From: Bernardetia sp.
GTDB lineage: Bacteria; Bacteroidota; Bacteroidia; Cytophagales; Bernardetiaceae
Assembly (NCBI GenBank): GCA_020630575.1
Contig: JAHDBD010000016.1
Span: 43,155-107,154 of the forward strand
Reading direction: 5' to 3'
Length of the DNA stretch: 64,000 nucleotides
In this document: positions 604 to 27,829 of the stretch, piece by piece
How positions within the stretch are numbered: position 1 is the first letter of the stretch
How the letters are laid out: every line of letters begins with the position of its first letter
Translations under genes and position numbers: made by a program
The notes under the pieces: model-generated
What the model was told of the DNA's origin: nothing
What the model saw: only the letters and a program-made list of their open reading frames with translations
Databases searched by the model: none

Positions 604-1689
604 TTATAGTATTTTTCTCTTAATAAACTGAATTATTTCTTGGGCAAATTTTATATAAAATGATAATTCATTATAATCTACAACAAAAAAAGTCTTTTCT
701 TTACTTCCAAAACTAGCATAAAAACGAGCAACTTCTTTTTCTTGTGCCGATTCAAAATCTAAAATTGTTTCATGAGTTATATCTTTACTTTGAATATCAA
801 AATTATTTACATTAAAAAAACACTCGTCTTGATTACTTTTTTCTTGAATAAATTTATCTAAAAACCATCTTCTACTTTCATCTCTTTTATGAGTTGGTTT
901 GGCTGCATTGAATAAATAAATCCATTTTGTAATAGAATTTTCTTGATACAATGATTTGCTTTTTACCAACAAAACTCCACTTACAATTTCCTTTTCATTA
1001 TTTTGAATGTAAACTAACTCTGCAAGTTCTTTCTCTTTCAGAATATGGAAAAGTTTTTTTAAAACTGGTTTTGCTTGATTTGAAATTCCATTTTCTAAAA
1101 AAACACTTTCTTCAAAAAACTGCCAAACCAAATCTATATCATCAACTTTTGTTCTTTTGATAATTTTAAAATTCTGTTTTTGAGCTTGGTTGATTCTATA
1201 TTTTGTATCTCTCTTATAGTTTTGACGAATTTTAAGATAATTCTGCTGCACAGAAAGATGATGATTTTTGTATTTTTTTAGATTTTCTTCAAATTTATTA
1301 TCATTTTGATTAATAAATACCTCTTCAAATTCAGTTGAAAACTCTTCGCAATTTGTAGTATTGAAAGGGTAACTCGAAACCAATTTGAATTTCTTTTGAA
1401 GTAAAATCAAAAAAGTTTTAAACTCCGAAGTAGATAATTTTTTAGTAGAAAAAACACCTAATTGTTGTACAAAAAGAGGTTGCTGCAAAAATGAAATTCC
1501 ATATTTTTTTTTGACAGGAAGTGGCATGACAGCCTCATAATTTTGCTCATTATCTTCTAAAATAAATCCTTCCCAAGAAGGAGAAACACAATCCAAATAC
1601 CAAGAAAAGGCATAAATTAGATTTTCTTTTGAAGAAGAAATACATTTATCCCATTTTTTCTTATCGATTTGATGATGTTTGAAGTGCAA
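604..1689 (-). CDS. hypothetical protein (possible FemAB/GNAT-fold acyltransferase-like, weak)
   Basis: A 361-aa ORF with no internal stops and no signal peptide. Its size and composition resemble the Bacteroidota 'GNAT/FemAB-like' ~350-aa proteins. I see no diagnostic motif, so the product call is weak. Confidence 0.4.
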   Translation of the reverse strand: MHFKHHQIDKKKWDKCISSSKENLIYAFSWYLDCVSPSWEGFILEDNEQNYEAVMPLPVKKKYGISFLQQPLFVQQLGVFSTKKLSTSEFKTFLILLQKKFKLVSSYPFNTTNCEEFSTEFEEVFINQNDNKFEENLKKYKNHHLSVQQNYLKIRQNYKRDTKYRINQAQKQNFKIIKRTKVDDIDLVWQFFEESVFLENGISNQAKPVLKKLFHILKEKELAELVYIQNNEKEIVSGVLLVKSKSLYQENSITKWIYLFNAAKPTHKRDESRRWFLDKFIQEKSNQDECFFNVNNFDIQSKDITHETILDFESAQEKEVARFYASFGSKEKTFFVVDYNELSFYIKFAQEIIQFIKRKIL

Positions 1690-3680: not shown

Positions 3681-3752
3681 GGTATCACAGACATCTCTGT
3701 CTGTGTAGAAATAGTTAATGGTAGAGTTTTTTTATTCAGACTAGGAAGTCTG
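3681..3752. repeat. family C double-hairpin element (GGTATCACAGAC-atctct-GTCTGTG ... CAGACTAGGAAGTCTG)
   Basis: It has two palindromic stems about 30 nt apart, upstream of the TetR gene. A second copy with the same arms is at 14341-14404 (GTATCACAGAC-ttcctagt-CTGTG ... CAGACTAGGAAGTCTG). Confidence 0.6.
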
Positions 3753-3847
3753 AATTACTTAATTAGCTTACAACTTGAAACAAAGATAATCAATAATTTT
3801 AAAATTAGTCCATTTGACCTAAAAATATTTTTCATTAAATTTGTTCT

Positions 3848-4480
3848 ATGAAAAACAAACCCAACACTAGCCAAGAAATTAAGAGAGTTGCAAAAGATTT
3901 ATTCAACCAAAAAGGTATCCCTTCGGTTACACTTCGTGAAGTAGCTAAGGAAATGAATAAGAGTTATGGAAATATTACCTATCATTTTTCTACAAAAGAA
4001 AAATTGATTGAAGAATTGTATCAAGATTTTAGAAATGAAATGCAGCAAGTTTCACAGGCTTTTTTTGGAGAAGAAAATTTATTTTTATCCATTCTGAAAG
4101 CTCCTTTTTATACGTTTGATATTTCGCTTTCGTATTTATTTTTCTTTAAAGACTATGTTTTTTTAATTAGGGAATATGAAGAATTAGCAAAAAAAATCAA
4201 TCAAGAAAATGAGCAGCGAAAAGCTATTTTAAAATCAATTTTGATGCAGCTTGTAGCAACTGGAATATTTAGAAATGATTTTGAAGAAAAAGATATTCTC
4301 TATCTGATGGAGCTGAGTGGTGCAATGCGTACTTTCTTTTTTATGCAGCTAAGAAACGAGGAATTTGAAAAGTCTACTTTAAAAAATGAGTACATAAATT
4401 ATGTCAATCGTCTTGTTTTTCCTTATCTATCAGAAAAGGGAAAAGTTACTTTTGAAGAATTTGATAGTAGCTTAATGTGA
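3848..4480 (+). CDS. TetR/AcrR-family transcriptional regulator
   Basis: A 210-aa ORF. The N-terminal HTH 'GIPSVTLREVAKEMNKSYGNITYHFSTKEKL' is the TetR_N signature. The C-terminal part is a helical ligand domain. Confidence 0.75.
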   Translation: MKNKPNTSQEIKRVAKDLFNQKGIPSVTLREVAKEMNKSYGNITYHFSTKEKLIEELYQDFRNEMQQVSQAFFGEENLFLSILKAPFYTFDISLSYLFFFKDYVFLIREYEELAKKINQENEQRKAILKSILMQLVATGIFRNDFEEKDILYLMELSGAMRTFFFMQLRNEEFEKSTLKNEYINYVNRLVFPYLSEKGKVTFEEFDSSLM

Positions 4481-5341
4481 ATTTAGTTCTTCAAACACAT
4501 CAAAATTTTCAATAGAATGATATTCTTTGGGAATAGAGTTTAGTTTTGTTTTCTTTACATTTTTCATATCAGATGGATCTTCCCATTTTTTAGTTTTGAA
4601 AAATGTCCTTCTTGTAGTGTCTGCTATGTTTGGAGAAATATGTTCTAGTGTATCTATTTTTAATCCGTTCCATTTATATTTATAAAGTAACGGATTCCAG
4701 CCATAAGTAAGTCCTCTAATTACTTTTTCTTTTGGATAAAATGTAGGATTTATAAAATCATATTTTTCTGTAAACTTTGTTTTATTTTGAAATAAATAAA
4801 CATCACGTAATTCTGCTAAACAACAGCCACTCATGGGATAACTTTCTATAATAAAATCCTTTTTATTATCTCCATTTATATCTCTTATTGTATCTCCTTG
4901 ATATGTATTATGGTATCCATCAAAATAAAGTAAAGTTTGTAGAGAATCTGATTTTTCTATTGAATTATAATAGTACACACAAATTAGAGTTTGATAAATT
5001 GCACCTATACGAAGTACAGCATGAATACCATTTTCAGTAAAAAGATTGCCATATTTAATTTCTATTTGTAAATCTGAATTAGTTACTTTTGATTTGCTTT
5101 TATAATTATATTCATCTACTTTTTCATTTTTGTTCTCTTTGATTAAACTTTTGATTTTTTCCTTTGCCTCTCTTATTGTTGTTTTTAGTTCGCCATCAAA
5201 CTCATCATAAGCATCTTCCTCTGATAAATTGACTTTCGAAGAATCAATTTCTTGTTGTTGAGAAATAACTGTTTTATTTTCTTGACAAGAAAAAACACCT
5301 AATATCGTAATTACAAAAAGGAGTTTGAGTAGTGATTTCAT
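4472..5341 (-). CDS. hypothetical lipoprotein
   Basis: A 289-aa ORF with a signal peptide and lipobox 'LGVFSC'. It has no recognisable catalytic motifs. It overlaps the TetR stop by 9 nt (convergent). Confidence 0.5.
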   Translation of the reverse strand: MKSLLKLLFVITILGVFSCQENKTVISQQQEIDSSKVNLSEEDAYDEFDGELKTTIREAKEKIKSLIKENKNEKVDEYNYKSKSKVTNSDLQIEIKYGNLFTENGIHAVLRIGAIYQTLICVYYYNSIEKSDSLQTLLYFDGYHNTYQGDTIRDINGDNKKDFIIESYPMSGCCLAELRDVYLFQNKTKFTEKYDFINPTFYPKEKVIRGLTYGWNPLLYKYKWNGLKIDTLEHISPNIADTTRRTFFKTKKWEDPSDMKNVKKTKLNSIPKEYHSIENFDVFEELNSH

Positions 5342-5433
5342 AAAATTATACTGAATTGAATAGATTTTTAGCCGAAAGCTAAAGCATTTGGTACATTTTT
5401 CTCACGCTAAAGCATAAGCTACATGGATTACAT

Positions 5434-6438
5434 TTAATACTGCTGCAATGTATTTTCAAGTTCCATTCGAATCTGTGAAGAAAGAGGCGCAGGACTAATC
5501 ACACGAACCGACGAACCATAGCCCAAAATCAACATTTTGAGTTCGTAATTTACAATCAAATGCAGACGTATTCTGTATTCATTATCATCTTCTATCAAAA
5601 CTTCTTGCGTATGATGAATGGGTTGTGATTTGATATATTTTCCTTGAAAAGGGTCAAAACTCAAAATTACATCTTCTGGCTTTTGGTTGAGAGCCGAAAC
5701 GCCAATACAATAATGATAAAATTCTTCTGGATTAAAATGCGCCTGTTCAGGAGTCATAAAAAGTGTTTCATCAGAAGGTTCTATGTCCATTATTCTATCC
5801 AATCCAAAGGTTCTGACTTCGTTATATTTGCGTACCCAACCAATCAAATACCACATATTTCGGTATTCTTTGAGCAAATAAGGATGAATACTGTATGGTT
5901 TTGTGTGTGGTTCGTTATGTTTTTGATAGAATATTTTGATAACGTTTTGCTCTGAAATATGATAGATTAAATCTTTAAGTTGGTGCGTTCCTTTTCCTTT
6001 ATAAATCGATTGTTCGACCTGAATAATTCGCTGTACATTTTTTTGGATTTCCGAACTTTTGGCAATTTCCATTCCGTCCAAAACCTTATCTACTGCTCCT
6101 GAAAATTCATTAAAAATAGGAAGTTCTCTAAACTCTCCCAAAAGAGATTCTACAAAAGCCATTGCAAGCTGCTCATCATCAGAAAGATTGACCGACAAAA
6201 ACTTGTACTTTGAATCCGAATAAGAGTAACCTCTCATTTTTTTACTATACTCAATCGGTGCATCGAATTCATCACGCATAGCAGCCAAATCTTTTTCGAT
6301 GGTAGAAGCTGACGAAACTCCAAAACGCTCACGACATGCCTCCAATAATTCATCTTTAGTAGGAAAGGGTTTGAATTTGCTGCGTAACATTTGGTCAATG
6401 AGCAAATAACGAAAAAAAGCGAGTTTGGTAGCTGCCAT
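5434..6438 (-). CDS. WYL-domain transcriptional regulator (HTH-WYL-WCX, YafY/CapW/BrxR-like)
   Basis: The N-terminal HTH 'AATKLAFFRYLLIDQML...' is followed by a central WYL motif 'YRNMWYLIGW' and a C-terminal extension. The start was re-assigned to the ATG at comp(6436-6438) (MAATKL). The first 41 codons of the track ORF translate the family A repeat element and are not counted as coding. Confidence 0.75.
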   Translation of the reverse strand: MAATKLAFFRYLLIDQMLRSKFKPFPTKDELLEACRERFGVSSASTIEKDLAAMRDEFDAPIEYSKKMRGYSYSDSKYKFLSVNLSDDEQLAMAFVESLLGEFRELPIFNEFSGAVDKVLDGMEIAKSSEIQKNVQRIIQVEQSIYKGKGTHQLKDLIYHISEQNVIKIFYQKHNEPHTKPYSIHPYLLKEYRNMWYLIGWVRKYNEVRTFGLDRIMDIEPSDETLFMTPEQAHFNPEEFYHYCIGVSALNQKPEDVILSFDPFQGKYIKSQPIHHTQEVLIEDDNEYRIRLHLIVNYELKMLILGYGSSVRVISPAPLSSQIRMELENTLQQY

Positions 6439-6444
6439 AAGAAC

Positions 6445-6500
6445 AATTACGAATTTAAAATTACGAATTACGAAATAATCAGCGTAGCTAATTACGAATG
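6445..6500. repeat. family A repeat copy (AATTACGAATTtaaaATTACGAATTACGAAATAATCAGCGTAGCTAATTACGAAT)
   Basis: It lies between the stop of the TIR/WD40 gene and the WYL gene start. Other copies are at 27785-27820 (same orientation) and 60320-60416 (including a reverse-complement copy, CGTAATTAGCTACGCTGA). Confidence 0.6.
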
Positions 6501-6651
6501 AGTGTATTTCATAAGTAACTGCTAAAAGTGAGTTTATGTGTCTAAAATAAATATAAGGCATCGAAAAGTAGCATTTTTAGCATGACTTTTCTTTATTAAT
6601 TTACTTATTTCTAACAAAAGACGCATTTTAAAAGGATTTTGCCAAAAAAAA

Positions 6652-9600
6652 TTAATCACTTACTTCTATTCCACTATCAATTCGTAGTCTTTCAAAAAAC
6701 TCTTCTTGTTTTTGGGTTGTGATTTCGGTTATAATAAGCATATCTACATCTAACTCTAACCATTCTAACCAATCTGATTTATTGTAGTATTTAGTGTATA
6801 TTTTCTCTGCTTCTTCAAAATGATCATTTACCAAAAATGCTATGAAAGCACTACGAGTAAAGAACTCATTACTAAATTCTTTATCAATTCCTTTTTGTGC
6901 CATTTTGAGAACCTCTTCTTTTTTGTTTATATCCAATCCTTTGTCTATTGCTACTGAAAGTGCATATTGATGATTCAACTGATTTTTTTCTGAAAATCCT
7001 TTTTTTGTTAACGCAATGTCGAACAAACTAACTATTTTCAAAGCAATAGGATATTTCTCTACACTATATCCTGCCTCTTTTAGTTTCTTTTCATACTGTG
7101 TTATGATTGCCATAATTTCTTTCAAATTTGCCTTTTCTATTTCTTCTTCACTTGGTTCTACACCTATACTAAGTAAGTCAGATATATTGGGAGTATACAA
7201 ATTATTACTTTTAATTGGAGAGTTTACAGTATTCCAAACTTTCATATTTCCATCTTCATCAACAGAATATATTTTTTTATTATCATTAGAGAATATGGTC
7301 TCATTTACATTCGCTTGATGTCCTGTAAAAGTCTTGATAAGATTGCCCTCTAAGTCCCAAACTTTGATAGAACGATCTGTACTGGATGTAATGATTTGTT
7401 CATTATTAAGTGATAACTCTCCTCCTAAAACAAAAGAAGTATGTCCTTTTAAATTAGCTTTTACTTTTCCATTCCAATCACTCAAAATAGCATTATCATT
7501 TCGCCCTCCCACAAGAATTAGCTCTTTTTCTTTTGATAAATTTAAGACATATATATGATGAGGATAAAGAGAATTAAGAGTTTTGTATATATTTTCCATT
7601 TCTATATCCCATATTTGGAGTGTTCCTTGTTCATCTCCAATTCCTATGTACTTCGAATTTTTTGGATCAAAAGTAATTGCAGAAACTTTTTTGGGTGTAC
7701 TTATTACTAATTGTCTTGTTAAATCATTCGTATTATAAATGAATACTCTTCCTTTACCTTCGTCAGTATTATCTGCGCCAATAGCAATATACTTGTTATC
7801 ACCAGAAATAGCTACTTTTCTAACATGATTAGGGATTGTTATGAGGGCTTTTCTCTCTGTCAAGTCTGTATTCCATATTTCCACTTGCTTGTTCCACAGT
7901 CCTACAATTATTTTTGTCCCATCTTTTGAGAAGGTAGAAGACATAACTGTTGTCTGATATTCTTTTTGTCTTATCAGTTTGCCATCTTCTGTGTATAGTT
8001 TTAAAGATTTGTCGTAAGAAGATGTAAGTAAATTATTGTTTGTTGGGTGCTGAGAAAGACCTGTAACTGATTTTTGATGTATATTTTTTTCTTGCAACAA
8101 ATTCCCTTCATCTTGCCAAACCAATACCGTTCTATCATGTGAGGAAGTAATCATTTTATCATCTATGAAACCAATCCCACTCACACGGTCTTGATGTCCT
8201 TTGAAAGTATGAACTAGATTGCCTGTTAGATTCCATTTTTGAACATTTCCATTTAATAATCCAGCTAAAATATAATTTCCATCAGGGGAAAAGCTAACAC
8301 TCTTTACATAATCAGTAGGAACTATAAAAATAGGTTCACTTATATTTGATAATTTCCATAATATTATTCTTCTCTTTCCCCAACTGCCTGTTACTAACAA
8401 ACTATCATTTGGAGAAATATCAATTGCTTCTACATGTTCAATATCTGAAAAGAAATAATCTTGTATCTCTAAATTAGTATCAAGAATATTAGCATCTTTT
8501 CTCGTGGAAACAATTATTTTTTTTCCATCAGAAGTAATTTGTATATCTGTAATTTCTTCTTCTTTCAAGTCATTTTCTGCAACAACTTCCTGTGTTTCGA
8601 TGTTCCATTTTTTTATATACGAGTCATAATCGCCAGTAATAATATGTTTGTTATCTGGCATAAATACAACTTTACTCATCGCAGTCTCATCATCGTTTTG
8701 TAATGTTGCTATCAATTCTCCTTCTTTAGTCCAGACTGTTATTTTGTTTTCTCCTCCCAAAGCAATAAGTTCTCCGTCACTTGAAAAAGCTACTGTACCA
8801 ATATACGCCTTATGCCCTGCTATGCTGCGAGTAAGCTCTCCATTGCTTGACAAACCTGAATCTGCTGAGCCAACTCTGTCTGCTCCTCCTGCTATACCAA
8901 TACGTTTGCCACTACTATTTATTAGATGTGCTGTTTTGTCTGAACTTCCTGTCAGTATTGTTCCATCAGGAGAAACAGCTATTTCATTGATTGATGCAGT
9001 ATGCCCTTTATATTTTGTTTCGTAAAAGGAATAATTCCGATGGATAGAAAATACTACATCTTTGGTAATTGGTTTTGGATTTTCTTGGTACGCTTCTTTT
9101 GCTAAAAACAAAGCATAGGTAGGGTCTTTTTCTGTCAGTTGTAAGGCAGTAGATATTTTTGCATTTGATTTTGATTCTTTATCTGCTACTTTTTGAGAAA
9201 TAATTGCTTTTTCTTTTGCTTGCTTGGCTTTATTTTCTGCTAGTTCAGCTTCAATACGTTTTGCTTCTGCAAAATTCTTTGAATTTAGGGCATCAGATAA
9301 TGCTTTTTGAAGTTTTTTTTCTTTTTCTTGTAATTGAACTAATGCTTCGCTCGTTTCTTTTTTTGCTTCATCAGCAGCTTTTAAGGCTTTTTTTGCGTCT
9401 CTTTCTGCCAATTTTGCTCTATCTCTTTGTTCTTCTGCTTGAATACGATTTCGATTAGCTCTTTCATTCAATAATAAAGCATTATTACGAAGACGATATA
9501 CATAAAAACTAATTCCAACAAATGCGATAAGAGCCACAACAGCCACAGCCAAAAGTCCTCTAAGGCGTTTGATTGTGTTTTTTTCTTTACGTTGTAACGC

Positions 9601-11487
9601 AAAAATGGCAGCATCACTTTCTTTTAAATATTCTCTTTGTAAAGCAGTTGGTTTTGGTTTTTTGTCTTCTTTATCAGCAGACTCTAACCACGCAGAAGCT
9701 AAAGCAAAACTACTTCCTCTGAGCAAATAATCTTTATTTTTATCACTTTGTTTCCATTGTAAAGCCTCTTTTTGCCATACATTGTGCATTCTGACATATT
9801 CTCTATCTGTATCTAATGTTCGGATTACTTCACCAAACTGCTTACTAAAATCCTTATCTACAAAATCTATCCATTGAACAGCAGCCAAAGCAGGTGGCAA
9901 CGTAGAAGGGTCAGTTTCTCTGTGCAAAACAGTAATAAAACGTTTTCCTAGCTTTTGAGCATACTCAACCTCATCAGCACAATAAGGCGACTGAATAGCA
10001 TCTGGAGAAATAACAAACAGAAAATTAGTCGCCCCTTCTATTCCTCTATAAATTTCTTGTTGAAAATCTGCACCTGAGGCAATACTTTCTTGGTCAAACC
10101 ACGTCGTTTTTCCATTAAATTGTAGTTCTTCGTTTAGCTTTCTAGCAAAATCACTATCTGTACGAGAATAAGAAACAAAAACCTCTGTGTCTAAATTTCC
10201 ACTTTTGGCTTCACTTTCTAAAATAAAATTTTCGTGCAACGGTAAAGGCTGATGTTTACTTAATTTCTGTCCTCGTTTGAGCCAAACTTTTGCTTCATCT
10301 AGTTTGTGTCCTCTCAAAAGAACAGAAGTATTATTATTTTGCCTTTCCCATTTTAAAGCATTGGTTAAAAATACTTTGTGTTTTTTGTAATGCTCTCTAT
10401 TTCGGTTTATTTCTTCTACTAATGTATCGATGTCTTTCTCAAAATCTGTCTTTTCATTCTTTGAAGTAACTTCTGTAATTATATTATCTGTAAAATCAAT
10501 ATATTGTAAGTTCTTGATTTGTGCAGGAAAGTCTTTTATTGGAACTTCTTCTATCAGCAAAGGAATAATTCTTTTGTTCAGTTTTACAGCGTATTCTAGC
10601 TCAAAAAGACAGTATTCTGAAATAATAGAATCTTTAGTAATAAAAAACAGAAAATTATCAGCTCCTTCAATTCCTCTTTCTATGGCTTTATCAAATTCCT
10701 CTCCTTTTACAATATCTCGGTTATGTGTCCAAGTCGTAATTAAATGCCTTGCCAAAGCCAAACGAACAGATTCTCTTTCTTCTTTGTCTTGAGAAGAATA
10801 TGAAATAAAACAGTCTGTCAATAAATTTTCAGCATTTTTTCGTGATTCACAAAGGTAATCAGTGTGCAATTCAGAAGGCTGACAAGGAGGTTGCTGATTT
10901 TTAAATTCTGTCAAAAGCCACTCTTCGGCTTCCTGTCTTTCCTTTCCTACTAAAAGTAAATGAGAGTCGTTGTTATGCGTTTCCCAGTTGAGGGCTTTGT
11001 CTAAAATCTCGGTGTGCTTTCTAACATATTCTTTATTCTTTTCTACTAAATTCCAAAGTCCTTCCAAGGCTTCTTCATAATTATCTATCGTTTTGTAGTC
11101 TTCTTGTGGAATATCTTTTTGCCATTCTTGGCGCATATAAACCCAGTTTATTTTTCCAATGGCTGGGTGAAGTTGCTGCCACGTTTCATCATCTGTTGGC
11201 TCAATTTGAAGAATAGGAACAATTCGTTTTCCTCTTTTTACGGCTAAATCAATTTCCTTTCTACAATACACCGAACGCACAGCATGAGGCGCAATAATAA
11301 AAACAAAAACATCTGCTTTTTCGATTCCTTCATCAATCTGATTTTGAAAATCTACACCTAATGGAATATCATTTTGGTCAAACCAAACATCATAACCTCG
11401 TTCACATAAATTATCATGCAATTTTTTAGCAAAGGCTTTTGATTCAGCTCTGCCGTAAGAAATGAAGACATTATTGAAATTTGACAT
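6652..11487 (-). CDS. giant 3xTIR - TM - coiled-coil - WD40 repeat protein
   Basis: A 1611-aa uninterrupted ORF. Three TIR units (aa ~6-120, ~226-335, ~435-545) each have a betaA 'F(I/V)SY' and an alphaC 'S-x-Y-C-x-x-E-[ILV]' (SVYCRKEI, SEYCLFEL, SPYCADEV). Each TIR is followed by a repeated linker motif (ALNWE..NDSHLLLVGKERQEAEEWL; ALKWE..NTSVLLRGHKLDEAKVWL; ALQWK..KDYLLRGSSFALASAWL). One hydrophobic helix is at aa ~644-664 (LLAVAVVALIAFVGISFYVY). A K/E/A-rich coiled coil spans aa ~670-785. At least 10 WD40 blades with GH...WD signatures span aa ~810-1400. The C-terminal ~200 aa are helical. Confidence 0.9.
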   Translation of the reverse strand: MSNFNNVFISYGRAESKAFAKKLHDNLCERGYDVWFDQNDIPLGVDFQNQIDEGIEKADVFVFIIAPHAVRSVYCRKEIDLAVKRGKRIVPILQIEPTDDETWQQLHPAIGKINWVYMRQEWQKDIPQEDYKTIDNYEEALEGLWNLVEKNKEYVRKHTEILDKALNWETHNNDSHLLLVGKERQEAEEWLLTEFKNQQPPCQPSELHTDYLCESRKNAENLLTDCFISYSSQDKEERESVRLALARHLITTWTHNRDIVKGEEFDKAIERGIEGADNFLFFITKDSIISEYCLFELEYAVKLNKRIIPLLIEEVPIKDFPAQIKNLQYIDFTDNIITEVTSKNEKTDFEKDIDTLVEEINRNREHYKKHKVFLTNALKWERQNNNTSVLLRGHKLDEAKVWLKRGQKLSKHQPLPLHENFILESEAKSGNLDTEVFVSYSRTDSDFARKLNEELQFNGKTTWFDQESIASGADFQQEIYRGIEGATNFLFVISPDAIQSPYCADEVEYAQKLGKRFITVLHRETDPSTLPPALAAVQWIDFVDKDFSKQFGEVIRTLDTDREYVRMHNVWQKEALQWKQSDKNKDYLLRGSSFALASAWLESADKEDKKPKPTALQREYLKESDAAIFALQRKEKNTIKRLRGLLAVAVVALIAFVGISFYVYRLRNNALLLNERANRNRIQAEEQRDRAKLAERDAKKALKAADEAKKETSEALVQLQEKEKKLQKALSDALNSKNFAEAKRIEAELAENKAKQAKEKAIISQKVADKESKSNAKISTALQLTEKDPTYALFLAKEAYQENPKPITKDVVFSIHRNYSFYETKYKGHTASINEIAVSPDGTILTGSSDKTAHLINSSGKRIGIAGGADRVGSADSGLSSNGELTRSIAGHKAYIGTVAFSSDGELIALGGENKITVWTKEGELIATLQNDDETAMSKVVFMPDNKHIITGDYDSYIKKWNIETQEVVAENDLKEEEITDIQITSDGKKIIVSTRKDANILDTNLEIQDYFFSDIEHVEAIDISPNDSLLVTGSWGKRRIILWKLSNISEPIFIVPTDYVKSVSFSPDGNYILAGLLNGNVQKWNLTGNLVHTFKGHQDRVSGIGFIDDKMITSSHDRTVLVWQDEGNLLQEKNIHQKSVTGLSQHPTNNNLLTSSYDKSLKLYTEDGKLIRQKEYQTTVMSSTFSKDGTKIIVGLWNKQVEIWNTDLTERKALITIPNHVRKVAISGDNKYIAIGADNTDEGKGRVFIYNTNDLTRQLVISTPKKVSAITFDPKNSKYIGIGDEQGTLQIWDIEMENIYKTLNSLYPHHIYVLNLSKEKELILVGGRNDNAILSDWNGKVKANLKGHTSFVLGGELSLNNEQIITSSTDRSIKVWDLEGNLIKTFTGHQANVNETIFSNDNKKIYSVDEDGNMKVWNTVNSPIKSNNLYTPNISDLLSIGVEPSEEEIEKANLKEIMAIITQYEKKLKEAGYSVEKYPIALKIVSLFDIALTKKGFSEKNQLNHQYALSVAIDKGLDINKKEEVLKMAQKGIDKEFSNEFFTRSAFIAFLVNDHFEEAEKIYTKYYNKSDWLEWLELDVDMLIITEITTQKQEEFFERLRIDSGIEVSD

Positions 11488-11571
11488 AGTGAAAATAAAG
11501 AACTACTAGTAATGTAAGTTTATTTTTTTTGCAAAATAACATTTATTAGCTGACATTCAAATTACTTAGTC

Positions 11572-12648
11572 TTATTCCTTTGAATATCGTTTACTTCTAA
11601 TTTCAACTAATGCTTGTTCTAGTTTTTTCACATTTGGATAATCTGGCAAAGTAGAATTTTTATAGGCTTTTTCTAACTCTTCAATTTTTCGGTCTGCTTT
11701 TTCGATAAGCTCTTCATAGGTAAAAAATCCACTTCTGATTTTTAACAATTCTTCTCTGTTTGGACGTTTTACAATGACTTCTTTTTTCTCCAAAATCTCA
11801 ATCGCCATATCTAGAAGGCGAAAAGTGTGCATCATATTTTTTGCATCGTAATTTTTGCCGTGTTCAAGTGTGTTTTCATAGCGTGTGTCATTTCGCTTTT
11901 CTACCCAATCCCAATATTGTTTGTATTCCTTGCAATGCGCTGCATAACCTTCTTTATTGAAATATAAATAAGCAATTGGTTTTTCTCCTTTCGGAATACT
12001 GCTCAAACTAACTTCATTGGATTCATTATTTTTCAAGATTCCTTTATAATAAAAGTCATTTTGCTCATTTTGATTATGATAAAAAAGCAAATACGTATTT
12101 TTGATATGATTTATTGACGAAAGTCCACAATTCTCCTGTTTGTAATCATTTGTTTTAAGCCATTTTTGAAGAGAAATACTTCCATTATCAGTCAGAATAT
12201 AGCAAAAATCTAAAACTGTTTTTCTTTCCTTTGGCATCGGATTAAAAATTTTCTTCTTTAATCCTTTTGCTTTTTTGATTTGAGTAAGGGCATAACCTGC
12301 AAAAGTATCTCTACATAATTTTGATAAAATATCTTCCGACTTTATCAAATCAAGAATTGGATTTTTGTAAAAAACATCTTCTTTTGCAGTATGAAAAATC
12401 TCAATCGCAGACGGATTATTTTTTGATAAAAGTTCTATAAAACGTTTTATTTCATAAAAAACAATGTCATTTTTTTCATCGCTCACTTGTGGAACATAGT
12501 CTAATCCATAAAATTCTTCTTTTGGTAGAATAAAAATTCCTTTTATATCTGTGTCCGAAGTTGGTAAATCTGTTCCGTAGGCTTTACTTCCTGCAAGTGC
12601 TTCTAGGAGGATTAGATTTTTTTCTTTTAGTGTTTCTAGGTTCATCAT
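11572..12648 (-). CDS. Pol-beta-superfamily nucleotidyltransferase (PF10127 / 'RlaP'-like predicted NTase)
   Basis: A 358-aa ORF. The N-terminal 'LEALAGSKAYGTDLPTSDTDIKGIF' is a G-S-x9-D-x-D nucleotidyltransferase motif. The long helical C-terminal domain is typical of this stand-alone NTase family. It lies 84 bp upstream of the TIR/WD40 gene and runs the same way. Confidence 0.7.
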   Translation of the reverse strand: MMNLETLKEKNLILLEALAGSKAYGTDLPTSDTDIKGIFILPKEEFYGLDYVPQVSDEKNDIVFYEIKRFIELLSKNNPSAIEIFHTAKEDVFYKNPILDLIKSEDILSKLCRDTFAGYALTQIKKAKGLKKKIFNPMPKERKTVLDFCYILTDNGSISLQKWLKTNDYKQENCGLSSINHIKNTYLLFYHNQNEQNDFYYKGILKNNESNEVSLSSIPKGEKPIAYLYFNKEGYAAHCKEYKQYWDWVEKRNDTRYENTLEHGKNYDAKNMMHTFRLLDMAIEILEKKEVIVKRPNREELLKIRSGFFTYEELIEKADRKIEELEKAYKNSTLPDYPNVKKLEQALVEIRSKRYSKE

Positions 12649-14340: not shown

Positions 14341-14404
14341 GTATCACAGACTTCCTAGTCTGTGCAAAATATAGTATTTCTAACAGACTAGGAAGTCTGT
14401 TTTA
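14341..14404. repeat. family C double-hairpin element (second copy)
   Basis: GTATCACAGACttcctagtCTGTG followed ~20 nt later by CAGACTAGGAAGTCTG and then TTTTAC. It sits immediately upstream of the C1 peptidase gene. The arms are the same as in 3681-3752. Confidence 0.6.
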
Positions 14405-14422
14405 CTTATAAATTCTATCCTA

Positions 14423-15850: not shown

Positions 15851-16558
15851 TTTTTTTTGTATTATAAAAATATTATAAAAACACTTTTTAAAATTGTATT
15901 TATTTTATATATTTATCTGAATTAAAATAAGTTCAATTTGTATTTTTGGCTCTTTTTTCGTTGGCTATACATAACAAATTTATACAATTTTTTTTGTAAC
16001 AAATTAGTCTTTTTACAAAAAGATTATTTTAGATTGCTGTAAATTTATGGATTCTAATTATGGTATTATTTTATGCTATGCTTTTAGCAAACTGTTTTGC
16101 TTATTTAGTAAAACCTTTCAATTAGGTCTATACAAATATGATTTATTTGAACACTTTTTTCACCTCTTTCACAAGTTAAAATACCTTCTCAGAATCCACA
16201 AAAATCTGTAAATCAATAAATTAAATTGCATTTGTTGATTATAAAATTTCAAAAATCATTAAAATTCTATTCTTTAGACTACGACTTGCATTAAAAATAT
16301 AAACATATCAAGATTACAAACACCTGAAAAACAAGTATTTTTGAAAAATTATAACCTTTTCAATAAAATATTGTATTTTTAATTTGTTAGAGAAGTCATT
16401 TTTTATTACTTTTGAGAACTATCAATAAGGTCAAAGGTATGGCTTTTTATTTATTCTACAAAACACAAACCTTATTGTACTTTTCAAACCACATCAAAAA
16501 CAACTTTACTACACAACAAACAATTACTTACAAAAAAACAATAAGCTCAAATTGCCTT

Positions 16559-17743
16559 ATGTATAATGATATACCAAAAGAATTAGATGTAGTTCTTCTT
16601 ACTCATCCTAGAGATGAAGAAGATGTAGTTCGTTTATTGCCTTGGGCAAACAAAATTTCTCTTGAAGAAAAAGCTGAATTATTAGGATGTATGAGACCTG
16701 TTTTTGGAGAGGTAATCAGAACTAATAATCTGAATGTAGGAATTTTATTTATACCTAGTTTAGCTGAGAAAATAATGAACCCTGCTACACGAGGCAAGGT
16801 AAGATCATTAATAGAGAGTGAAGTAGTAAGAATGTTAATTTTGTCACGAACAAAAATAGTGTGTTTAGGAGGCTTAACAGCATCTCTATTAGGGTACGGA
16901 AGACATCTCAAAAAAACTCTTAAGGATTACCCAATCCAGATTACTACTGGGCATGCTCTTACATCAATTTCTATCTACAAAACATATAAAAAAGTGATAG
17001 ATCAGTTAGGTGTAGATATGCAAAATGAAGGTATATCTCTACTTGGAGTAGGAAGTGTAGGAACTGCTTTTGCAAGACTTTTAATAAATAAAGAAAAGAA
17101 ACTCAACTATTTGCTGCTCATAGATAAGCCTAGTAAAGAAACTGAATTAACTAATCTGAAAAAGGAATTAGAATTAATAACTAATATTCCTATTCTTTTA
17201 GAGACAACAAATAACGATGGGACTATTAAAGAGGACAGTATTATTTATGAGAGTAAGGTATTAATCAGTGCTGTAAGTAGTAAAGATGTAATACAAATTG
17301 CTGATATTCCTCCCAATAAAATATTGATAGATGATAGTCAGCCTTACTGTTGGAACAGAGAAGAAGCGTGGGAGAGAGTAATTGAAAAAAATGATATAGT
17401 CCCTTGTGAAGCAGGTCTAATAGATTGCTCTACTATAGGTTATTTGTCAGATTTTCCTTTTGATTTTGCTAATCATGATGAAAATGGAACAACTACTTCG
17501 TGGTGTTGTATGACAGAAGGACTCTTAAAACATTTGGATAATAGTCTGCCTTCAATTTTGGCAATACCATCATCAGAGCAAATAAATACTTATTATAATG
17601 CCTTTGAAAGGTTTAATTTAAGTGCTGCAACCCTTCAATGTAAAGGTAATATTTTACCAATCGGAAAACTAAAAGAAAATTTTGCTAAGGAAAAGAAAGA
17701 AGTTCATTTTACAAATTTAGGACTTTCAAAAAATATTTGTTAG
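16559..17743 (+). CDS. hypothetical protein with Rossmann-type G-x-G-x-x-G motif (putative NAD(P)-binding enzyme)
   Basis: The track ORF starts at a TTG at 16412. The first ATGs are at 16439 and 16559; I chose 16559 (MYNDIPKEL). 'LLGVGSVGTAFARLL' is a dinucleotide-binding motif. No family is confidently recognised. Confidence 0.45.
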   Translation: MYNDIPKELDVVLLTHPRDEEDVVRLLPWANKISLEEKAELLGCMRPVFGEVIRTNNLNVGILFIPSLAEKIMNPATRGKVRSLIESEVVRMLILSRTKIVCLGGLTASLLGYGRHLKKTLKDYPIQITTGHALTSISIYKTYKKVIDQLGVDMQNEGISLLGVGSVGTAFARLLINKEKKLNYLLLIDKPSKETELTNLKKELELITNIPILLETTNNDGTIKEDSIIYESKVLISAVSSKDVIQIADIPPNKILIDDSQPYCWNREEAWERVIEKNDIVPCEAGLIDCSTIGYLSDFPFDFANHDENGTTTSWCCMTEGLLKHLDNSLPSILAIPSSEQINTYYNAFERFNLSAATLQCKGNILPIGKLKENFAKEKKEVHFTNLGLSKNIC

Positions 17744-17942: not shown

Positions 17943-18401
17943 ATGAAACTGATTTACCAAAACAAAGACGAAAAGCAAAATGCTTTTTACAGAATTTATA
18001 TTGATGAACAAAAGAAATATCTTCTTATCAGTACAGGAGGTGATATTACTCAAGAGTTTCATACTACTACAAATCTTAAGTTTTTAGAAGTAGTCGAAGA
18101 ATACAAATATAATAGCATCATTTTCGATTTGAGTAAGCAAAAATCTACTCAAGTAAAAAGCAGAATTTGGTTTGTTTCTTATGTGACTAAAAAAGCTCAT
18201 TCTATTTTGAGCCAAAATAATATCTATTGTGCTGTTATAAGTTCATCTAATGCCCTAGAAAAAGCTGTTACAAGTATTATTAAAAATTCAATAACAAGTT
18301 TTAAACCTAATATTCATATCGACTTTTTTAATCCTGACCAATTGCAAGAAGCTAAAGATTGGGTAACGCATAAAAACAATGTAGTTTCTATTGCCGAATA
18401 A
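17943..18401 (+). CDS. hypothetical protein
   Basis: A 152-aa ORF with no signal peptide and no recognised motif. It is followed by a 12-bp inverted repeat (18423-18469). Confidence 0.4.
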   Translation: MKLIYQNKDEKQNAFYRIYIDEQKKYLLISTGGDITQEFHTTTNLKFLEVVEEYKYNSIIFDLSKQKSTQVKSRIWFVSYVTKKAHSILSQNNIYCAVISSSNALEKAVTSIIKNSITSFKPNIHIDFFNPDQLQEAKDWVTHKNNVVSIAE

Positions 18402-26646: not shown

Positions 26647-27786
26647 TCAGAGAATCAACAAATTACACCCTCTAACATCTGAATAATCAAAACGTCCCAA
26701 AACTTGAAACTCTCCCTTTGAGTTGATTTTTCCTAAATCCTGTGTTTCTATAAAAGCACAACTTTCCACATTAGCCAAATCTATGACATTGACTGCCCCA
26801 CTTTGAATTTCAGATTCATTTTCTATGTTTTTCAATTCAAAAGGGTCATTTGTATCACGAATAATAATTTTGAGATAAGAAGGAGTTTGAAACCAAATTT
26901 CATTATTATCTAAATTATTTTTTTCTAGATTTTTAATCGCATATCCTTGAGACAAAAGCTCTGTCATTCCGTATTCTGAATCAATTGCAGAAACACCAAA
27001 AGCAGTCTTTAAAATGTGATGAACCTCTTCTCTTACCATTTCCTTTTTTCGTCCTTTCATTCCTCCTGTTTCCATCACAATTATTTCATTCTTTTTAGTG
27101 AGAGTTGTTTCTAAACTTTCAAATTGTTTGGTTTTAGGTAAACGATAGTTAGGATATTTTTCTTTCAAAAAATCAGCAAAATCTAAAAGTGCAAATGTTA
27201 CACCTAGCAAGAGAATTGGTTTTGTAGGATTTGTTATAGTTGCTTTTTCTAATTCATTCTTCAATTTCTCATAATCATACAGGAAATAATTTGAATTGGG
27301 TTGTGCATTTTTCAAAAAATAATCTACCATATAAATTAGCGAAGAACCATCACGCTCCAAATAAGAAGGCAGCAGCGCAAAAATCTGAAAATCACTTAAT
27401 TGTCCGTATTCTTTATACAATTCTTCAAAAATAAATTGGCTTGATTTTTCATAAAAATGCAAATCCGAAAGAGCATGTTTACTTCTCTGTGTCAAATCTG
27501 TTGTTCCACTACTTGTAAAAATTTGATTTGTCTTTACACCTTCTATTTGTACTGTATGTGACTTAAAAAAACGAATTGGCAAAAATGGAATTTTATAAAT
27601 AGAATTTATGTCTGACTTATTAATATTTAATTTTTCTATATACTGCTTATAAACAGGATTATATTCTGATTGAAAATAAAATAACTCCAAAGCTTTATTT
27701 TCAAATGCTTCAAAATCGTTTTTTGGAATAGAGAAAATACTCTCTTTGTACTTTTTTATAAAATTTTCGTCCATATTATAAATCAA
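26647..27786 (-). CDS. LuxE/PaaK-like acyl-protein synthetase (adenylate-forming) family protein
   Basis: It is 379 aa. The N-terminal helical region and central 'SSGTTD' P-loop-like adenylation motif resemble the LuxE acyl-protein synthetase family common in Bacteroidota. No LuxC partner is adjacent. Confidence 0.55.
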   Translation of the reverse strand: MIYNMDENFIKKYKESIFSIPKNDFEAFENKALELFYFQSEYNPVYKQYIEKLNINKSDINSIYKIPFLPIRFFKSHTVQIEGVKTNQIFTSSGTTDLTQRSKHALSDLHFYEKSSQFIFEELYKEYGQLSDFQIFALLPSYLERDGSSLIYMVDYFLKNAQPNSNYFLYDYEKLKNELEKATITNPTKPILLLGVTFALLDFADFLKEKYPNYRLPKTKQFESLETTLTKKNEIIVMETGGMKGRKKEMVREEVHHILKTAFGVSAIDSEYGMTELLSQGYAIKNLEKNNLDNNEIWFQTPSYLKIIIRDTNDPFELKNIENESEIQSGAVNVIDLANVESCAFIETQDLGKINSKGEFQVLGRFDYSDVRGCNLLIL

Positions 27787-27829
27787 TTACGAATTATGAA
27801 ATAATCAGCGTAGCTAATTATTGTTGGTG
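27785..27829. repeat. family A repeat copy fused to a family B half-site (AATTACGAATTATGAAATAATCAGCGTAGCTAATTA + TTGTTGGTG)
   Basis: It matches 6461-6496 at about 33 of 36 positions. It overlaps the first two nt of the LuxE-like start codon region. Confidence 0.55.

Follow-up and report, generated by a model that had tools for sequence, protein, structure and literature searches.

The three co-directional genes examined here, which an earlier note had taken for one TIR-based defence module, are two unrelated things in one place. A nucleotidyltransferase (NTase) and a WYL regulator form a conserved backbone pair, and between them sits the gene of a giant tandem-TIR transmembrane protein (hereafter the giant), a stand-alone accessory gene that is naturally polymorphic among close Bernardetia relatives. 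That the locus is such a composite, with the giant acting as a TIR-array membrane receptor, is in our judgement reasonably probable. The window, meaning the whole stretch of Bernardetia sp. DNA analysed, is 64,000 nucleotides long.

Organization of the locus

ORF inspection confirmed three co-directional minus-strand ORFs at the coordinates first given for them (Table 1), and Pfam bore out the domain calls: an NTase, three TIR domains, a WD40 array and a WYL domain. The HTH of the regulator follows from its family architecture and not from a Pfam call, and the coiled coil assigned to the giant is a putative one, read from Lys/Glu/Ala-rich sequence. Both reported gap sizes hold, 84 bp before the giant and 213 bp (6439-6651) after its stop codon (6652-6654). 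The latter is counted from the WYL start ATG at 6438, the mechanical ORF extending to 6561; this start (MAATKLAFF, giving 334 aa) is found in 8/8 orthologs for which the WYL gene was extracted. As had been stated, there is no tRNA boundary, the entire 64-kb window containing no tRNA gene, and no integrase was found among the Pfam-scanned ORFs or on the minus strand of the locus.

Table 1. Features of the locus, in minus-strand order (positions in the window)
Feature	Position	Strand	Remarks
NTase, RlaP-like Pol-beta, 358 aa	11572..12648	-	backbone gene, outside the inserted unit
Spacer, NTase stop to giant start, 84 bp	11488..11571	-	holds the left junction, AATAAATGTTATTTT / GCAAAAAAAATAAAC
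Giant, tandem-TIR transmembrane protein, 1611 aa	6652..11487	-	inserted accessory gene
TIR unit 1, aa 1-135, E78	11083..11487	-	Pfam TIR_2, PDB alignment, AF2, Foldseek
Helical linker after TIR unit 1, aa 136-218	10834-11082	-	
TIR unit 2, aa 219-352, E296	10432..10833	-	Pfam, Glu alignment, AF2; followed by helical linker aa 353-430
TIR unit 3, aa 431-562, E506	9802..10197	-	followed by helical linker aa 563-640
Single transmembrane helix, aa 644-664, GLLAVAVVALIAFVGISFYVY	9496..9558	-	Kyte-Doolittle maximum 2.72
Lys/Glu/Ala-rich predicted helical stalk, putative coiled coil, aa 669-800	9088..9483	-	composition only
WD40 array, aa 823-1445, ~14 blades	7153..9021	-	Pfam WD40; presumed sensor
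C-terminal domain, ~166 aa, aa 1446-1611	6655..7152	-	most divergent part, 55-68% identity
Conserved ~42-bp non-coding element, TTTTTTTTGGCAAAATCCTTTTAAAATGCGTCTTTTGTTAGAA	6609..6650	-	right junction of the insertion
Dispersed 'family A' repeat copy, TTAGCTACGCTGATTATTTCGTAATTCGTAATT...	6442..6500	-	abuts the WYL start codon
HTH-WYL-WCX regulator, 334 aa	5434..6438	-	backbone gene; Pfam WYL and WCX

The tandem TIR array

Pfam TIR_2 matches the giant in three stretches (E 6.6e-79), and the AF2 model, with a pLDDT of 83.7, has the TIR fold. Foldseek gave target-normalised TM scores of 0.7-0.84 against the TIR domains of SARM1, AbTir and Hydra TRR-2, and among solved structures the nearest folds belong to the NADase TIRs of SARM1, SPARTA and AbTir. 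Alignment with PDB sequences places E78 at the position of the Glu of AbTIR and BtTIR that is known to be catalytic; of the three catalytic-position residues named previously, E296 and E506 are correct and the first is E78, not E77. All three are invariant in a 21-sequence alignment drawn from several phyla. The TIR region is ~55% identical between Bernardetia and 18 more distant homologs, cyanobacterial and other Bacteroidota sequences included, and TIR unit 3 is the unit with the highest conservation across phyla. From these alignments we infer units of NADase type with an intact catalytic-type Glu, which would be expected to act on NAD+.

A different reading would make the TIR units non-enzymatic scaffolds, comparable to the TIRs of animal TLRs and adaptors, which build a membrane-proximal platform with a structural or adhesion role. 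Tandem arrays with helical spacers could indeed oligomerise, and some TLR TIR domains are among the fold matches. However, the catalytic-position Glu is kept in every unit across phyla, the best matches in both sequence and fold are NADase TIRs (AbTIR, BtTIR, SARM1 and SPARTA), and a partner TIR adaptor gene is not conserved nearby. A purely scaffolding array is consequently very improbable.

The membrane helix and the predicted ectodomain

The giant has one hydrophobic helix, as the earlier description had it. Between TIR unit 3 and the WD40 array lie a linker, this helix and the charged stalk, a segment in which Pfam matches nothing, and no NTPase family (NB-ARC, NACHT or similar) is among the 25 best Pfam matches listed for the giant. 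The Pfam WD40 match is strong (E 2.1e-61), many other beta-propeller models match besides, and the ~14 blades probably form two propellers. No Pfam match to the C-terminal domain was obtained at E<=0.05.

The TIR array is under strong purifying selection, and the part beyond the membrane helix is faster-evolving and mosaic. Values of dN/dS are 0.06-0.09 for the TIR array versus 0.19-0.23 for the WD40 array and 0.20-0.24 for the ectodomain as a whole, the latter being below 1 and hence no demonstration of positive selection. The stalk is 74-75% identical among giant orthologs. Within the WD40 array the first half of the window copy is 92% identical to that of locus L001 and 65% to that of L002, and the second half is 66% identical to L001 and 79% to L002. 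Since WD40 modules with the same Cys-containing C-terminal motif presumably occur in cytoplasmic STAND proteins of cyanobacteria, a periplasmic location of the array is plausible rather than proven.

The NTase-WYL backbone pair

Pfam RlaP (PF10127) scores 57.3 bits against a cut-off of 23 on the NTase, over aa 11-126 only, that is, its N-terminal third. The GS...DTD motif ascribed to the NTase is present with a different spacing (G20-S21-x10-D32-T33-D34 instead of x9), and G20, S21, D32 and D34 are invariant in 45 homologs. Identity is 85-94% across Bernardetia and 50-61% across Bacteroidota. The AF2 model (pLDDT 87) has weak fold matches to the minimal NTases KNTase, HalB and MNT; no CD-NTase appears among its sequence or fold matches, and it has no PADLOC match and no close solved structure. 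At 80 loci of other Bacteroidota, a full-length canonical RlaP adjoins the NTase ortholog in 40, RtcB lies within 3 kb (<=3 kb) in nine, a WYL gene within 10 kb (<=10 kb) in eight, and a TIR gene in none. By sequence, then, the NTase is a diverged paralog of canonical RlaP. A role as a signal-generating CD-NTase is rejected on these grounds: it is of PF10127 type, without a CD-NTase match in sequence or fold, and its orthologs sit next to canonical RlaP and RtcB. The biochemistry of RlaP has been described (PMC12776372).

The regulator matches Pfam WYL (E 2.2e-13) and WCX (E 5.4e-10) as well as PADLOC WYL profiles (E 1.9e-28), with a weak match to PafBC. It is 94-99% identical across Bernardetia whether or not the giant is present, with a dN/dS of 0.03-0.06. 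A Dysgonomonas WYL gene, 28% identical to it over the full length (E 3e-36), is transcribed divergently from an RlaP-RlaP'-RtcB operon, and in Pedobacter a homologous WYL regulator lies near the NTase ortholog. In ~10 distinct Bernardetia-like loci the NTase and the regulator are always neighbours, within a conserved backbone order of C1 peptidase / NTase WYL pyrF ... PorV, and in only three is the giant between them. The two are directly adjacent, ~190-250 bp apart and without the giant, in L003, L005, L007, L092, L094 and L097-L100. These giant-free loci come from B. litoralis DSM 6794, Bernardetia sp. MNP-M8, Flexibacter sp. CG_4_10, two long ENA-assembly contigs (one also in NCBI) and four metagenome contigs; L097-L099 are probably from the same population as L007 (Flexibacter sp. 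CG_4_10). In L093 the spacer holds a methyltransferase gene unrelated to the giant. The NTase and the WYL regulator are thus a conserved backbone pair that is unrelated to the giant. The suggestion that the regulator gates defence genes in the manner of BrxR or CapW likewise fails, as the WYL gene is conserved with or without the giant and its conserved partner is the NTase.

Burroughs and Aravind, as cited in PMC7824862, are said to have described, in 2016, RtcB/RlaP RNA-repair operons with a WYL or RtcR regulator. The NTase shares with them the PF10127 match and the GS...DxD site, and its orthologs adjoin canonical RlaP/RtcB, whereas in Bernardetia only the diverged NTase paralog and the WYL gene remain together. 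No RtcB, canonical RlaP or Band-7 gene occurs in the 64-kb window, and an RNA ligase association of the NTase is absent from every Bernardetia locus examined. The pair looks like a stripped-down form of the RNA-repair neighbourhood in which Bacteroidota combine canonical RlaP, an RlaP-like NTase and RtcB; there a WYL regulator is sometimes nearby and, in one locus, a Band-7 gene. By analogy with their families, the NTase may extend the 3' ends of damaged RNA by one or two nucleotides, and the regulator may sense a nucleic-acid or nucleotide ligand and control transcription in response.

Insertion of the giant

Something was indeed inserted here, as the earlier note had supposed, but the unit is the giant alone and not three genes, given that the NTase-WYL pair is found giant-free elsewhere. 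Orthologs of the giant, 79-82% identical, occupy the same site in Bernardetia sp. ABR2-2B and OM2101; at the NTase-WYL site of the other Bernardetia-like loci examined the giant is absent. The left junction is defined against the empty sites AATAAATGTTATTTTTTTTGGCAA(A)... of L005 and L007. At the right junction, the ~42-bp element was found in 9/9 genomes whose spacer was read: it immediately follows the stop codon of the NTase gene in L093 and the empty-site genomes, and that of the giant in the window, L001 and L002. It has no Rfam match. The spacer at 6439-6651 had been described as mostly a 'family A' repeat, which holds for the ATG-proximal ~60 bp only, the distal ~42 bp being this different element. 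The 16-mer of the repeat has 4 matches in the window versus 0.11 expected. Other copies of the repeat abut other genes.

Neighbour-joining trees of the flanking genes group the window with L001, L002 and L005 in a single clade, and the pattern of presence accordingly fits one gain and one loss. The dS of the giant (0.5-0.9) is close to that of its flanks (0.4-0.7). The giant would then have entered the ~200-bp spacer between NTase and WYL once, in an ancestor shared by one Bernardetia sub-clade, and later have been lost in one member.

A large family of presumed single-gene sensors

A search with TIR unit 3, its linker and the membrane helix as query (threshold E<=1e-30) returned a family of 1,686 50%-identity clusters. 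All of the best 150 homologs have at least three matched stretches, and 113 of the best 120 have 3, 5, 7 or 9 TIR units. The membrane helix is present in 109 of these 120, at an identical offset after the last TIR in those inspected, and in 94 of the 109 its N-terminal flank is the richer in K/R. Members are laid out as 3, 5, 7 or 9 TIR-plus-linker units, one membrane helix and an interchangeable C-terminal module, which may be WD40, CHASE2, dCache-like or FGE-sulfatase-like; true extracytoplasmic sensor domains are among these alternatives to WD40. In place of WD40, P0064 (173 bits) and P0103 (162 bits) have TM-CHASE2-3TM by Pfam, P0015 has TM-dCache-like-TM at 37 bits, under the Pfam cut-off of 45, and some others have TM-FGE-sulfatase. 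The best matches with a named source are mostly cyanobacteria, Beggiatoa-type sulfur bacteria and Cytophagales, many of which are filamentous.

The gene contexts of six distant homologs were examined, one each in Flexithrix and Leptolyngbya, two on metagenome contigs and two on plasmids, and in none is RlaP or WYL a neighbour. Their surroundings are mostly housekeeping genes and not defence islands, which leaves an immune reading without support from the neighbourhood; the sole copy among IS elements, with an AbiEii gene, is on a plasmid of Bernardetia sp. Wsw4-3y2. The giant is a member of a large, uncharacterised family of presumed single-gene sensors, with no partner gene conserved across the contexts inspected.

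Do the three genes act together?

In the module reading, the WYL regulator could, for example, control expression on sensing either a product of the TIR domains (an ADPR-derived or 2',3'-cyclic nucleotide) or RNA damage that they inflict, and the NTase could repair RNA ends or make a signal. In its favour, all three genes stay contiguous and co-directional in three genomes whose flanking genes differ at 9-11% of nucleotide positions, each outer flank differs among those genomes, and the 84-bp spacer has no terminator-like site on the minus strand, so that none separates the NTase from the giant. Comparative genomics has moreover linked WYL domains to cyclic-nucleotide recognition and NAD+-processing systems (PMC7824862). 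Nevertheless, most Bernardetia-like genomes keep the NTase-WYL pair without the giant and under constraint that is no weaker, the WYL promoter-proximal region is common to giant-bearing and giant-free loci, and the spacer can be occupied by an unrelated methyltransferase, as in L093. Elsewhere the TIR gene is missing from all 80 NTase loci and the NTase and WYL genes from all six distant giant contexts, and the NTase resembles CD-NTases in neither fold nor sequence. One TIR-based defence module within this clade is accordingly quite unlikely. Conservation of the gene neighbourhood, the check that had been proposed for the module, shows that homologs of the three genes are not co-localised elsewhere and that part of the locus is a core-genome neighbourhood; as the earlier note had named both outcomes as counting against it, the module largely falls on its own terms. 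Given that the trio stays contiguous in three genomes while its outer flanks are rearranged, a secondary functional link may exist within this clade.

Comparison with known systems

PADLOC gives only generic TIR and WYL profile matches, in keeping with the earlier view that no named defence system corresponds to the locus. AbTir/BtTir, TIR-SAVED of CBASS, TIR-APAZ of SPARTA, ThsB of Thoeris and TIR-STING have, like the giant, a TIR_2-type domain with a conserved Glu, and would share with it a logic of sensor-triggered, oligomerisation-dependent NAD+ cleavage. The giant differs in having several TIR units per chain with helical spacers, a membrane anchor and a large C-terminal repeat domain, and, unlike those systems, it lacks a partner gene (ThsA, CD-NTase, pAgo or STING). 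Thoeris was rejected because NCBIfam ThcB4 reaches 106.7 bits where its cut-off is 220 and the PADLOC ThsB profiles match the generic TIR core only; the giant's flanks contain no SIR2/SLOG gene. NCBIfam retron-TIR models fall far below their cut-offs on the giant. For CBASS/Pycsar there is no CD-NTase and the giant has no SAVED domain, the PADLOC SAVED_TIR match covering aa 3-84, the TIR core only. For SPARTA, the Aga_TIR profile is matched at positions 5-173 of 430, its TIR part only, and no pAgo gene is a neighbour. A STAND/NLR-like TIR-NTPase-repeat protein was dismissed because Pfam matches no central P-loop NTPase between TIR unit 3 and the WD40 array and lists no NTPase family among its 25 best matches.

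Nor is the giant a Toll-like receptor proper, having WD40 in place of LRR repeats and N-terminal, tandem TIR units. What it would share with Toll-like receptors is a logic: a repeat-built ectodomain, a single membrane helix, cytoplasmic TIR and presumed clustering, if its predicted topology is correct. Its orientation would be inverted (type II), with WD40 versus LRR and several NADase-type TIRs versus adaptor-type ones, an analogy and not whole-protein homology. The TIR/caspase effector-repeat conflict systems of multicellular bacteria (Kaur, Burroughs, Iyer & Aravind, eLife 2020/2021) come from source organisms that overlap those of the giant's family. Their effectors are joined to WD40-type superstructure repeats or variable sensors, including extracellular CHASE2 with TM helices (PMC8195603), and in both groups the sensor part varies rapidly and appears recombinogenic. 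Unlike them, the giant carries none of the STAND, MoxR, vWA and GTPase switches and lacks an effector-associated adaptor domain. Its coupling would have to rest on transmembrane clustering alone. Tandem TIR arrays followed by a TM helix are not described in the conflict-system literature examined.

Proposed function of the giant

Most likely the giant is a transmembrane sensor encoded by a single gene, with TIR NADase activity in the cytoplasm as its output. Its NADase activity, topology, ligand and cellular outcome are matters that we infer, as follows. The protein would span the membrane once with its N terminus inside the cell; the three TIR units, with a spacer of three to four helices behind each, would be cytoplasmic, and the charged stalk, the ~14 WD40 blades and a variable helical cap would lie beyond the cytoplasmic membrane as the sensor. 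Ligand binding or clustering of the ectodomain would be signalled through the membrane helix and stalk, bringing neighbouring TIR arrays into head-to-tail assemblies with a composite active site, as in known TIR NADases. NAD+ would then be depleted or turned into an ADPR-derived signal, and the affected cell of this filamentous bacterium might arrest growth or die.

The same architecture could belong to a receptor for environmental or cell-cell signals instead of an immune or suicide device. Its ectodomain would sense a small molecule, envelope state or kin cue, and its TIR units would produce a nucleotide second messenger or adjust NAD+ to a modest extent, much as CHASE2/Cache receptors drive cyclases or kinases. 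The CHASE2 and dCache-like ectodomains of the family, typical of signal-transduction receptors, the housekeeping surroundings of distant homologs and the bias of named matches towards cyanobacteria, Beggiatoa-type sulfur bacteria and Cytophagales all agree with this. We nonetheless think it unlikely: no cognate gene for an ADPR-signal receptor or effector is conserved beside family members, close relatives can do without the giant and are polymorphic for it (L002 versus L005), the mosaic, fast-evolving ectodomain of the giant is more typical of conflict or recognition genes, and a related TIR-plus-linker profile is the PADLOC phage-defence candidate PDC-S66 (E 1e-26).

Returning to the receptor with NADase output, a broader proposal can be put forward tentatively, as a possibility that we would not yet call probable. 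Tandem-TIR-TM proteins may constitute a widespread, undescribed class of bacterial transmembrane receptors, numbering at least 1,686 50%-identity clusters, in which an extracytoplasmic sensor controls a cytoplasmic NADase-type TIR array. They would be a counterpart of Toll-like-receptor logic in bacteria that are mostly filamentous, watching the periplasm for threats or for signals from kin. The near-universal odd number of TIR units would then reflect the way in which intramolecular pairs plus one free unit build the active oligomer.

Implications

A three-gene TIR defence module, if true, would have been a new system. Given that the arrangement is an accident of insertion, the module reading should stay out of defence-system catalogues. 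What the locus offers in its place is twofold. In the NTase-WYL pair, Bacteroidota have a candidate for a minimal RNA-damage-response circuit, one that lacks the ligase. The giant, for its part, offers a clean and naturally polymorphic instance of a candidate receptor family that is large and apparently unstudied; the gene is present in OM2101 and missing from its close relative MNP-M8. Confirmation of the topology and the NADase output would show that bacteria link sensing outside the cytoplasm directly to TIR enzymology, and would provide a tractable system in which to study how TIR oligomerisation is controlled from the far side of a membrane.

Gene Content of the Locus

The window is low-GC (~30%) Bacteroidota DNA, and the three minus-strand ORFs that an earlier note had joined into one TIR-based defense module are present as it placed them: an RlaP-like Pol-beta nucleotidyltransferase (NTase), a giant protein with tandem TIR domains, and an HTH-WYL-WCX regulator (WYL). 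Pfam upholds the domain calls (RlaP/PF10127 for the NTase, three TIR_2 units and WD40 for the giant, WYL and WCX for the third gene), and the single transmembrane (TM) helix of the giant corresponds to a strongly hydrophobic stretch at aa 644-664. Other details needed correction: the first TIR glutamate is E78 rather than E77, the NTase motif written as G-S-x9-D-T-D is spaced GS-x10-DTD, and the 213-bp spacer described as mostly a family A repeat carries this repeat in its ATG-proximal part only. The WYL gene probably starts at the ATG at 6438, giving 334 aa, a start and length found in every ortholog extracted. NCBIfam matched neither the NTase nor the WYL protein, and Pfam detected nothing significant in the TIR linker, stalk, or C-terminal domain of the giant.

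No minus-strand terminator appeared between the three genes in the terminator scan, and comparison by eye revealed no convincing operator shared upstream of them. The sigma-70 promoter/terminator scan remained at background level under a model that does not represent Bacteroidota promoters, and Rfam at gathering threshold matched nothing in the whole window.

Genes, flanking ORFs, and non-coding elements of the window
Feature	Position (strand)	Remarks
NTase	11572-12648 (-)	RlaP-like
Giant	6652-11487 (-)	1611 aa; 3xTIR-TM-WD40
WYL	5434-6438 (-)	HTH-WYL-WCX
361-aa ORF	604-1689 (-)	flanks locus; no significant Pfam family
289-aa ORF	4472-5341 (-)	flanks locus; no significant Pfam family
443-aa ORF	16412-17743 (+)	flanks locus; no significant Pfam family
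152-aa ORF	17943-18401 (+)	no Pfam match; adjoins metallo-beta-lactamase-fold gene
~42-bp non-coding element	6609-6650 (-)	TTTTTTTGGCAAAATCCwTTTAAAATGCGTyTTTTGTTAGAA; read by eye
Dispersed short repeat	6442-6500 (-), 27785-27815 (-), 60320-60335 (-), 60389-60415 (+)	TTAGCTACGCTGATTATTTC(A/G)TAATTCGTAATT
Hairpin-forming repeat	3737-3761, 14341-14408	CAGACTAGGAAGTCTG core; intergenic, both sides of locus

A Backbone With and Without the Giant

Across the Bernardetia-like genomes compared below, the genes run C1 peptidase / NTase WYL pyrF ... PorV, and the NTase-WYL pair is therefore chromosomal backbone. The giant occupies the same place between the two genes in Bernardetia sp. ABR2-2B (L001) and OM2101 (L002), which are also its closest named relatives in a database protein search; one entry there, from a 112-kb contig, matches it exactly. 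Elsewhere NTase and WYL are directly adjacent, ~190-250 bp apart, and a TIR gene between them is lacking: in B. litoralis DSM 6794 (L003), in Bernardetia sp. MNP-M8 (L005), in Flexibacter sp. CG_4_10 (L007), on two long ENA-assembly contigs (L092 and L094, one of them also in NCBI), and on metagenome contigs L097 to L100. Of these last four, three probably represent the same population as the Flexibacter genome. In one further Bernardetia-like genome (L093), a 306-aa SAM-dependent methyltransferase (10306-11226) fills the spacer in place of the giant, although its insertion point is another one, on the downstream side of the 42-bp element. Varied cargo is thus accepted here.

Neighbor-joining trees of two flanking genes unite the window, ABR2-2B, OM2101, and MNP-M8 in one clade, and the simplest history suggested by these sequences would be a single insertion of the giant in the clade ancestor followed by a single loss in MNP-M8. 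The dS of the giant is close to that of its flanking genes, which fits long co-residence. The three-gene module is not supported, because NTase and WYL stand together without the giant at most loci and relatives of the giant occur without these neighbors. Nor does the trio recur as a neighborhood across Bacteroidota: a survey of NTase orthologs at 80 loci from other genomes found a TIR gene nearby at none. Weighed between the lasting co-residence in three genomes and these giant-free loci, a functional link of the giant with the NTase-WYL pair peculiar to this clade appears decidedly improbable.

Both MNP-M8 and Flexibacter have the sequence AATAAATGTTATTTTTTTTGGCAA(A)... at the unoccupied site, and in the window the giant is flanked by AATAAATGTTATTTT and TTTTTTTTGGCAAAATCC at its junctions, which resemble each other over ~10 bp only (TTATTTTGCAAAA and TTTTTTTGGCAAAA). 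The ~200 bp downstream, up to the WYL start, are common to filled and empty sites. The 42-bp element, which has no Rfam match and forms no hairpin, is present in all nine spacers that were read (window, L001, L002, L003, L005, L007, L092, L093, and L094), after the NTase stop at empty sites and after the stop of the giant at filled ones. An integrative island was considered and rejected, since neither an integrase nor a tRNA nor a long repeat at the flanks turned up; in agreement with the earlier reading that no such boundary is visible, ARAGORN detected no tRNA or tmRNA in the window, and the ORFs examined include no integrase.

The dispersed repeat is overrepresented (four matches to its 16-mer core against 0.11 expected); two copies abut start codons of unrelated genes and two share one intergenic region, and it may be a genus-wide promoter/5'-UTR element or a miniature mobile repeat. 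The hairpin repeat at 14341-14405 has 31-nt arms that are 84% complementary, and a similar sequence lies upstream of the NTase in Flexibacter. At a position equivalent to that of the 152-aa ORF, L092 carries five unannotated ORFs in tandem (152-159 aa; 4583-7170); likened by size and position, these may be one family of variable copy number. In OM2101, a restriction-modification-like pair of HNH endonuclease and HTH-DNA methylase genes (L002 16419-19011), absent from the window, adjoins WYL.

The NTase-WYL Pair

The NTase is strongly conserved, with 85-94% identity among Bernardetia and 50-61% in Bacteroidota at large. Of the 80 loci surveyed, 40 have a full-length canonical RlaP (PF10127, E 4e-70) directly beside the NTase, nine have RtcB no more than 3 kb away, and eight have a homolog of the window WYL within 10 kb. 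In Dysgonomonas such a homolog, aligning over its full length (28% identity, E 3e-36), is divergent from an RlaP-RlaP'-RtcB operon. Neither RtcB nor canonical RlaP nor a Band-7 gene lies in the 64-kb window itself. RlaP enzymes extend damaged RNA at its 3'-OH by one or two NMPs (PMC12776372). Sequence search of the NTase against solved structures returned noise only, and fold search of its AF2 model (pLDDT 87) gave weak likeness to minimal Pol-beta NTases only (E>0.02); with no CD-NTase among sequence or fold matches, the idea of a signal-generating CD-NTase was therefore abandoned. Given the RlaP and RtcB neighbors, RlaP biochemistry, and a model unlike CD-NTases, the pair is best read as a putative reduced RNA-repair or damage-response module.

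The Giant as a Proposed Receptor

Freed from its neighbors, the giant belongs to a large family, with 1,580 database proteins matching at E<=1e-10 and 1,686 clusters at 50% identity (E<=1e-30) when TIR3, linker, and TM helix served as query; the best 150 of these clusters all show three or more matched stretches. Of the 120 best homologs, 113 have three (68), five (34), seven (9), or nine (2) TIR units, and an even number occurs in only seven. The units repeat with a period of ~205 aa in which long and short spacing alternate, as if n pairs were followed by a single last unit ahead of the TM helix. That helix is found in 109 of the 120, at a fixed offset after the last TIR unit in those inspected.

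In an AF2 model of aa 1-640 (pLDDT 83.7), a spacer of 3-4 helices comes after each of the three TIR folds, and the nearest solved structures by fold search are NADase TIRs, namely those of SARM1, SPARTA, and AbTir. The catalytic-type glutamates noticed earlier are indeed kept: E78, E296, and E506 are invariant in an alignment that includes 18 more distant homologs, cyanobacterial and other Bacteroidota proteins among them, to which the Bernardetia TIR region is ~55% identical. Beside this conservation, TIR units that act as a scaffold only are very unlikely.

Lysine and arginine are richer on the N-terminal TM flank in 94 of the 109 homologs, and in family members WD40 is replaced by TM-CHASE2-3TM, TM-dCache-like-TM (below the Pfam cut-off), or TM-FGE-sulfatase. 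Together these features support a predicted topology in which the N terminus lies in the cytoplasm and the sensor beyond the cytoplasmic membrane. Selection divides the protein along its length: in Bernardetia, conservation of the TIR array is 89-97% (dN/dS 0.06-0.09), and the part beyond the TM helix is 55-80% identical (dN/dS 0.20-0.33) and mosaic between strains.

Six distant homologs were inspected (Flexithrix, Leptolyngbya PCC 7376, two metagenome contigs, and plasmids of Bernardetia sp. Wsw4-3y2 and Chondrinema), and they share no neighbors with one another or with the window; the TIR array had no match among phage genomes. The Wsw4-3y2 paralog (835 aa; L095, NZ_CP147018.1, 468788-471295), on a 602-kb plasmid, is 57% identical over the TIR array with a much shorter C-terminal part, and is surrounded by transposases (IS4, ISL3, and IS1182) and an AbiEii-family toxin gene. 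The 2239-aa tandem-TIR-WD40 homolog of Flexithrix dorotheae has a separate single-TIR gene (269 aa; L087 6911-7720) directly upstream.

Known Systems and Proposed Mechanism

That no named system fits has stood: the locus fails tests for Thoeris, CBASS/Pycsar, SPARTA, and a STAND/NLR protein, PADLOC returned generic TIR and WYL models with no system-specific profile, and NCBIfam Thoeris and retron-TIR models fell below threshold against the giant. Neither does the locus qualify as a WYL-gated defense island. Oligomerization-gated TIR NADases are well characterized. Literature searches (tandem TIR, TIR-WD40, CHASE2+TIR) yielded no account of an architecture in which a TM helix ties tandem TIR arrays to interchangeable ectodomains. 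Multicellular bacteria are known from comparative genomics to link TIR effectors with repeats or variable sensors (PMC7159879, PMC8195603), and the giant would likewise couple a TIR effector to a repeat/variable sensor.

The giant is a predicted sensor-coupled TIR effector, and the best-supported reading makes it a single-gene, single-pass receptor. Engagement of the ectodomain by a putative ligand, or its clustering, would lead the cytoplasmic TIR arrays to assemble into an active NADase, with NAD+ depletion or an ADPR-derived signal as the presumed outcome. With the CHASE2 and dCache-like sensors of family members in its favor and the mosaic, faster-evolving ectodomain against it, a non-immune signaling receptor is an unlikely, if the least unlikely, alternative. 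The giant is moderately interesting as a way into an unstudied family of putative receptors.
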